Source: Thermoanaerobaculaceae bacterium (lineage in GTDB: Bacteria; Acidobacteriota; Thermoanaerobaculia; Multivoradales; UBA5704). From it: DNA of 64,000 nucleotides. Every line of letters starts with the position of its first letter. The stretch's first letter is position 1. The notes under the pieces were generated by a model. That model did not search any database, was not told the DNA's origin, and saw only the letters and a list, made by a program, of their open reading frames with translations. The DNA is taken from assembly GCA_963712665.1 (NCBI GenBank), contig CAVQIV010000005.1:142356-206355 (forward strand), given 5' to 3'. A program made the translations under genes and the position numbers. Below are positions 22,805 through 22,888 of the stretch, one piece after another.

Positions 22805-22888
22805 CCCTGTCTGACACCCAACGCTCTGTCTTGACACGCCGCGGACTCACTCGGCGCCGGGGGACCCGTGCCTCCGGTTTTTCGCCCC
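22805..22888 (+). promoter_or_regulatory. conserved upstream element, copy A (partner 32184-32250): two TGTC-N-GACA half-palindromes followed by a weak hairpin and T-run
   Basis: CCCTGTCTGACACCCAACGCTCTGTCTTGACAC...GACCCGTGCCTCCGGTTTTTCGCC lies 107-190 nt upstream of the RHS gene ATG (22995). It aligns with CCCTGTCCGACACGCAACGCTCTGTCGGCTGACAC...GACCCTCTGTTTTTTCACC upstream of the secretion operon. Confidence 0.55.

Follow-up and report, generated by a model that had tools for sequence, protein, structure and literature searches.

Why are a toxin gene and the secretion operon behind it preceded by nearly the same short stretch of DNA? The question is raised by the window analysed here, 64,000 nucleotides corresponding to positions 142356-206355 of contig C5 in an assembly (G000) of 8.79 Mb, 27 contigs and 67% G+C. 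Comparisons were made with a complete genome of the same genus (G006) and with further relatives. Homologous contigs that carry names assign the organism to the Acidobacteriota, Thermoanaerobaculia/Thermoanaerobaculaceae. The toxin gene (22995-32113, forward strand) is a giant of the Tc/RHS type, with SpvB, TcdB_toxin_midN, RHS repeats and a weak deaminase tip. It reads as two to three ORFs, with GC3 phase jumps near 26400 and 27050 that are apparent frameshifts; its G006 orthologue is a single open frame of 3077 aa. The secretion operon (32415-40266, forward strand) encodes four products, all on the forward strand: a small membrane protein from its first gene (32415-32729), a secretin (32796-35237), a T2SSE ATPase (35533-37023) and a T2SSF-like platform protein (38854-40266). 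The secretin gene is also frame-shifted, with GC3 phase changes at ~33200 and ~34700. The orthologues of toxin and secretin in G006 are intact. Many genes of the G000 MAG are split, and since these include several activator genes elsewhere in the assembly, the frame breaks in toxin and secretin are likely sequencing indels.

Alignment confirmed the two element copies and the extent of their similarity. Copy A, CCCTGTCTGACACCCAACGCTCTGTC--TTGACAC, occupies 33 bp ahead of the toxin gene (22805-22837, forward strand), and copy B, CCCTGTCCGACACGCAACGCTCTGTCGGCTGACAC, occupies 35 bp ahead of the secretion operon (32184-32218, forward strand), beginning 70 bp past the toxin stop codon. The aligned copies are identical at 24 of 26 positions and, after a 2-nt indel, at 6 of 7, giving 30/33 overall. 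A degenerate 26-mer of the element matched the window twice, compared to 0.00 matches in 100 shuffles. No third copy was found with up to five mismatches in the entire 8.79-Mb assembly, and a genome-wide search with the pattern TGTCNGACAC-N8-12-TGTC recovered the two copies and one unrelated site. The element occurs three times in G006, again exclusively within this locus, so that it does not have the distribution of a dispersed intergenic repeat (REP/MITE-like). Single TGTCYGACAY decamers numbered 23 in the genome compared to ~41 expected, an estimate from base composition; those elsewhere in G000 lay within genes or lacked a promoter and none had a second dyad beside it, a genome-wide result that was uninformative. 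From these data we conclude that the element is real, non-random and private to the toxin/machine locus, as originally predicted for two neighbouring transcription units.

Each copy contains two TGTC-N(1-4)-GACA dyads. Those of copy A are TGTC-T-GACA (22808-22816) and TGTC-TT-GACA (22827-22836), with the conserved spacer CCCAACGCTC; those of copy B are TGTC-C-GACA (32187-32195) and TGTC-GGCT-GACA (32206-32217). The dyads had been predicted to be about one and a half helical turns apart; instead, their centres are separated by 19.5-20.5 bp, or about two turns, and hence lie on the same face of the DNA. The architecture can also be described as a pair of forward YYGACAC units, spaced 20-22 bp and each with TGTC before it. 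The inner GACA-N10-TGTC distance was the same in four of the five copies seen and N9 in the fifth, while the dyad spacers varied among copies (N1, N2 and N4). Since the half-sites of TGTC-N(1-4)-GACA are 5-8 bp apart, which is unusual for an HTH dimer, the actual recognition unit may be YYGACAY or GACA-N10-TGTC rather than the dyad. The similarity that had been described beyond the core (ACTCG..GACCC..T5-6..C.CC..CTCG.AAAT) is real, but G006 preserves it in part only, its machine copy having lost 20 nt of it.

A sigma-54-type promoter follows each copy. The consensus for this class is TGGCAC-N5-TTGCW, with GG-N10-GC (PMC7170775). The predicted toxin promoter, TGGCGCCGGCCTTGCT, lies at 22937-22952 on the forward strand with its -24 GG at 22938-22939 and its -12 GC at 22950-22951, placing the predicted start at ~22963, ahead of an SD sequence (22981-22986) and the ATG at 22995. 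The predicted promoter of the secretion operon, TGGCACGCATCTAGCT, lies at 32304-32319 on the forward strand (GG at 32305-32306, GC at 32317-32318), with a predicted start at ~32330. The GG and GC doublets are exactly 10 nt apart in both promoters; the -12 box behind copy B is TAGC, compared to TTGC. In both cases the repeated motifs fall within the distance expected of activator sites, ~80-200 bp upstream. The centre of copy A is 117 bp from its promoter (about -141 relative to the predicted start, with dyads at -155 to -130), and the centre of copy B is 104 bp from its promoter (about -128, with dyads at -143 to -116). The strict pattern TGGCAC-N5-TTGC[AT] was found 20 times genome-wide compared to 6.1 expected, a three-fold enrichment. 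A loose promoter pattern was at chance level (76 observed, 73 expected), and the promoter calls therefore rest on positional conservation among genomes that are related and not independent.

The DNA between enhancer and promoter may be a bending region. Copy A is followed by a T5 tract (22878-22882) and by an IHF-like site, AATCAGATATTTA, on the reverse strand (22896-22908), which is kept in G006. This site fits the IHF consensus WATCARNNNNTTR (PMC3045617) in full. Downstream of copy B, a T6 tract (32234-32239) is accompanied by a degenerate IHF-like site, AATCACTGGATTTG, on the reverse strand (32253-32266); this site departs from the consensus twice and was not counted when sites were scored, and the 32234-32266 stretch is partly deleted in G006. 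Of 16 homologous promoter regions, 13 had an IHF-like core, TCAR-N4-TTR, in this interval, compared to ~0.2 per strand in shuffled sequences. Four proteins of the HU/IHF family are encoded in G000; IHF models are their best matches, but all score below cut-off. The T5 tract and the downstream similarity probably belong to a bending region upstream of the promoter and not to a transcribed leader.

The same layout was found in relatives. The comparison set consisted of 16 promoter regions, namely those of the toxin genes of six species and of ten machine loci, with G000 counted in both. The toxin promoters of G006, G013, G045, G005 and G057 carry TGGC-N7-TTGC 23-32 nt before the start codon, and the promoter boxes are invariant across the six species including G000, while the spacer varies. 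At the ten machine loci, including the one in the window, TGGCAC[GA]-N4-T[AGC]GC is found at -105 to -117 from the ATG, and local alignments between the machine core regions gave z-scores of 15-55. Every one of the 16 regions contains 2-6 GACA/TGTC motifs ~90-210 bp upstream of the predicted start. In total, the 140-nt enhancer windows of these regions contained 69 such motifs, compared to 14.1 ± 3.8 (maximum 28) after shuffling and ~10 predicted from the genome rate. Most loci have 3-5 direct repeats of (T/C)C(C/T)GACA(T/C) with a period of 10-11 bp, i.e. one per helical turn, and the dyad TGTCCGACA occurs within several of these GACA arrays. The window element is thus a lineage-specific variant of a putative genus-wide enhancer, and the predicted sigma-54 control of the toxin family and the machine is conserved across the genus. 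A machine of this type was not detected in G045, G005 or G004, which have a toxin gene preceded by GACA motifs and a sigma-54-type promoter; toxin and machine are therefore not obligately linked. In G006 the secretion operon is present a second time, without a toxin (L018, G006:C1:8546960), and this copy stands behind a plain 4x CCGACAT array, such that both enhancer styles coexist within that genome.

Comparison with G006 also bears on the history of the two copies. The toxin copies of G000 and G006 are identical at 31 of 33 positions apart from a 2-nt indel, and the machine copies at 34 of 35, while the flanks have diverged in both cases and the missing 20 nt of G006 include the T-tract. Both copies in the window thus appear as conserved islands. 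Within one genome the two copies differ more from each other than each does from its orthologue, indicating that the duplication predates the species split and that both copies were retained. By local alignment with shuffles, the G000 toxin enhancer region resembled machine-type enhancers (z = 10 for its own machine, 5.8 for G013 and 4.7 for G006) and showed no resemblance to the toxin enhancers of G013, G045, G005 and G057, whereas the toxin core promoter and leader resembled only toxin cores. As the enhancer aligns with one type and the core with the other, the toxin promoter of this lineage appears to be a chimera in which a copied machine-type enhancer was placed on a toxin-type core.

Of the three copies in G006, one precedes the toxin gene, another lies between toxin and machine where an ankyrin-repeat gene ends, and the last is attached to a fragment from inside a toxin gene. 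The ankyrin-repeat gene (L016:1790-2443) encodes 217 aa, is possibly an immunity gene, and has its stop codon inside the enhancer copy; unlike in G006, no gene lies between toxin and machine in the window. The third copy (L015:9184-9380, G006:C1:8731183-8731378) is joined to a fragment spanning toxin residues ~105-164. This fragment is 72% identical, contains one stop codon, and is a recombination remnant beside a patatin-like gene.

A single rpoN gene was found in G000 (C24:704916-705392), together with 50 PF00158 matches that correspond to ~35-40 genes for bacterial enhancer-binding proteins (bEBPs). No bEBP gene was found inside the window. However, the toxin gene of G057 is directly preceded by a gene for a 539-aa bEBP. 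This protein combines an AAA+ sigma-54 domain with a Fis-type HTH; its N-terminal region of ~160 aa matched nothing in Pfam or PDB, and a receiver domain is absent. G000 contains five paralogs of this bEBP with identities of 71% and 54-57%; the closest is C26:755060, at 71%, and the others are C24:659590, C26:158316, C18:16044 and C13:183399. Naming the activator by adjacency in G057 was considered and set aside, as the G000 orthologue lies far off at C26:755060 and is a candidate only.

Three of the five paralogs are found 3-4 kb from a sigma-54 promoter, each with its own GACA grammar. C26:755060 (region C26:755060-760260) is followed by a gene for a TPR Ser/Thr kinase, with 5x CCGACAT at C26:760217 and the promoter TGGCAAGCCCCTTGCA, a layout that recurs in G013, G006 and G015. 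C24:659590 (region C24:659590-664210) follows a gene for a secreted protein in its operon and is associated with 5x YTGACAC and the promoter TGGCACGAGACCTGC; this layout recurs in G004 and G045. For C26:158316 (region C26:154626-159830) no linked genes were noted, paired TGACATGTCA dyads are 3.7 kb off, and a promoter is present. Further GACA-array promoters were found upstream of genes for DUF11/DUF7507 surface proteins and secreted proteins. As members of this receiver-less family of five sit beside other GACA-type enhancers, the family is a natural source of candidates for the protein that would bind the element. The distribution of the G057-type bEBP across the genus does not track that of toxin or machine: close orthologues are present in many genomes without either, and none was found at E <= 1e-170 in G045, G005 or G004, all of which have GACA-preceded toxins. 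A bEBP tree, in which resolution was poor and the G005 row was mis-extracted, suggests that the G004 paralog groups with G000 C13/C24. The candidate bEBPs match no curated bEBP family above cut-off.

The most likely explanation for the shared element, to which we assign a probability of about 0.75, is that its two copies are the enhancers (UAS) of sigma-54 promoters through which one activator would switch on toxin and machine together. Transcription from sigma-54 promoters requires a bEBP, and with a UAS placed ahead of such promoters the binding protein should belong to this class. An AAA+/Fis-HTH enhancer-binding protein would bind the GACA/TGTC units, which share one face of the DNA at a distance of two helical turns, and would oligomerise at the element. 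The T-tract and the IHF-like site would bend the intervening DNA such that the activator could meet sigma-54 RNA polymerase at -24/-12, and the promoter would finally be opened by ATP hydrolysis. With nearly identical enhancers on toxin and machine, one activator would turn on both jointly. From the sequence features, we infer that transcription starts at the predicted sites and that a bEBP binds the element. The private, nearly identical element ahead of both units thus supports the co-regulation that was initially proposed.

A quite different promoter type had been proposed at the same time, in which the element is an operator pair for a dimeric regulator at a sigma-70 promoter, with TTGACA of copy A (22831-22836) as the -35 box, followed by a leader or attenuator in the form of the hairpin CCGGGGG..CCUCCGG and the U5 tract after copy A. 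Hexamer and hairpin do exist in copy A and behind it. However, a promoter scan detected no sigma-70-like promoter in either intergenic region. The hexamer has no -10 partner, is missing from copy B, and is replaced by TCTGACA in the G006 orthologue. The hairpin likewise failed as an attenuator, being no more stable than shuffled sequences (z = -0.39), located upstream of the predicted start, missing from copy B, and part of a stretch deleted in the G006 machine copy. Folding of the two copies and the hairpin was never better than shuffles (z = -0.39, -0.85 and +0.60), an Rfam scan of 20000-36000 at E <= 1 gave zero matches, and the sole terminator-like sites found by a terminator scan of both intergenic regions were at 22686-22702, upstream of copy A. 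We regard this arrangement as very improbable. What survives of the operator pair is the repetition of TGTC/GACA units, which suits a multimeric regulator, although one acting from a UAS 104-117 bp ahead of a -24/-12 promoter rather than from an operator at a sigma-70 promoter. Also conceivable, although unlikely, is binding of the GACA units by a regulator other than a bEBP, such as a repressor or a winged-helix response regulator on 10-11 bp direct repeats, that modulates the promoters. Direct repeats with this period are also the grammar of OmpR/PhoB-type regulators, and the window is without a bEBP gene. Nevertheless, the arrays are located 90-210 bp upstream of -24/-12 promoters and not over a -35 region, GACA-type arrays repeatedly adjoin genes of one bEBP family, and the requirement of sigma-54 promoters for a bEBP argues in the same direction.

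The remaining alternative concerns the origin of the copies rather than their binding protein. They could be the arrival scar of a toxin cassette, i.e. direct repeats around a 9.3-kb insert that have no regulatory role. In favour of this view, the toxin gene sits exactly between the copies (22805 and 32184), the third G006 copy is a recombination remnant fused to toxin codons ~105-164, and the toxin enhancer was apparently copied from the machine enhancer. On the other hand, the toxin-machine order is the same in G013 and G057 with no common flanking repeat, their two enhancers being different in sequence and sharing the GACA motif class only. The element is conserved far better than its flanks between G000 and G006, and it is still kept although the duplication is old, as orthologous copies are closer than paralogous ones. 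Moreover, no integrase or recombinase gene lies beside the toxin gene, and the copies did not qualify as att repeats. A scar devoid of regulatory function is therefore improbable. Duplication as the origin and enhancer as the function are compatible.

The closest documented parallel to a pair of sigma-54 enhancers serving one activator is found in the glmY/glmZ system of the Enterobacteriaceae, in which GlrR (QseF), IHF and sigma-54 act through TGTC/GACA half-sites and IHF sites, with one bEBP for both genes (PMC3045617). The likeness consists of two units, several TGTC/GACA activator sites, IHF-type sites and a -24/-12 promoter. The systems differ in that GlrR sites are inverted TGTC-N10-GACA, whereas TGTC-N(1-4)-GACA dyads and an everted GACA-N10-TGTC are found here; in that the candidate activators here are without a receiver; in their targets, which are a toxin and a secretion machine and not small RNAs; and in the phylum. 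The spacings of N1, N2 and N4 are not those of GlrR/QseF sites, and the candidates scored 181-193 bits against the GlrR cut-off of 763.

PilR acts upstream of pilA, and its quoted sites are TGT-N11-ACA and 'GTCT elements' (PMC8035640, PMC6058289). The locus resembles a PilR-dependent pilin promoter in that activator sites and a sigma-54 promoter precede a gene set akin to those of type II secretion and type IV pili, the product of its first gene being a small pilin-like membrane protein. However, the element contains no TGT-N11-ACA, the locus has no linked PilS/PilR pair, and the candidate bEBPs are without a receiver domain. The PilR site of P. aeruginosa as described by Jin et al. in 1994 reportedly consists of tandem (C/G)TGTC repeats, the complement of GACA. 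In more general terms the arrangement is that of an NtrC/NifA-type UAS, with paired or repeated sites on the same helical face 80-200 bp upstream of GG-N10-GC, an IHF site or bend separating the two, and dependence on an AAA+ activator. It differs from this type by its previously undescribed motif (YYGACAY, with the private 35-bp variant), by duplication of the enhancer within one locus, and by its occurrence in the Acidobacteriota (Thermoanaerobaculia). The mechanism itself (enhancer, bend and -24/-12 promoter) is textbook; what is new is the motif, the duplication and the targets in an uncultured soil acidobacterium.

To our knowledge, almost no promoter has been characterised in the Acidobacteriota. 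The present analysis turns the observation of a toxin beside a secretion machine into a testable claim of co-regulation, with two sigma-54 promoters, one 35-bp enhancer and five candidate activators, and provides a clean example of an enhancer duplication rewiring a toxin gene. A broader and much more tentative proposal, which we consider possible but doubtful, is that a family of receiver-less bEBPs, at least one of them paired with a TPR Ser/Thr kinase, drives a sigma-54 secretome in the Thermoanaerobaculaceae consisting of surface proteins, the Tc/RHS toxin and the pilin-less secretin machine. Each paralog would read its own GACA grammar (CCGACAT or YTGACAC direct repeats, TGACATGTCA or TGTCYGACAC dyads), and copy-and-paste of the 35-bp enhancer would have recruited the toxin to the regulon of a possible exporter machine.

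The secretion operon has a conserved 5' leader, GGTCCCAAAGTCC..CCCC..GGCGGGAC..AAAACAAAAACGGGGAA..AGGGAGG (32330-32414, forward strand). This leader is nearly identical base for base at 10 loci (window 32330-32414 and L021-L030), including its CCCC and CGGGGAA blocks. Its stem GUCCC/GGGAC is invariant, without covariation, and single leader sequences fold no better than shuffles. CsrA was considered as a protein that binds the leader and was rejected, as no CsrA gene was found in G000.

Two kinds of repeat were observed apart from the element. G000 contains a dispersed tandem repeat with 9-bp units of GGACA(N)4 (e.g. GACATAAAGGACATAAGGGACATAAAGGACA) at 17 or more sites, none of them in the window; examples are C13:192371, where an inverted set follows, C1:185507, C8:483473 and C24:295667. 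In G005, a long tandem array of ~60-nt units (ggaacgagaggctcgccgg...cagcttttcaccg) is located downstream of the toxin locus (L059:12850-13400).
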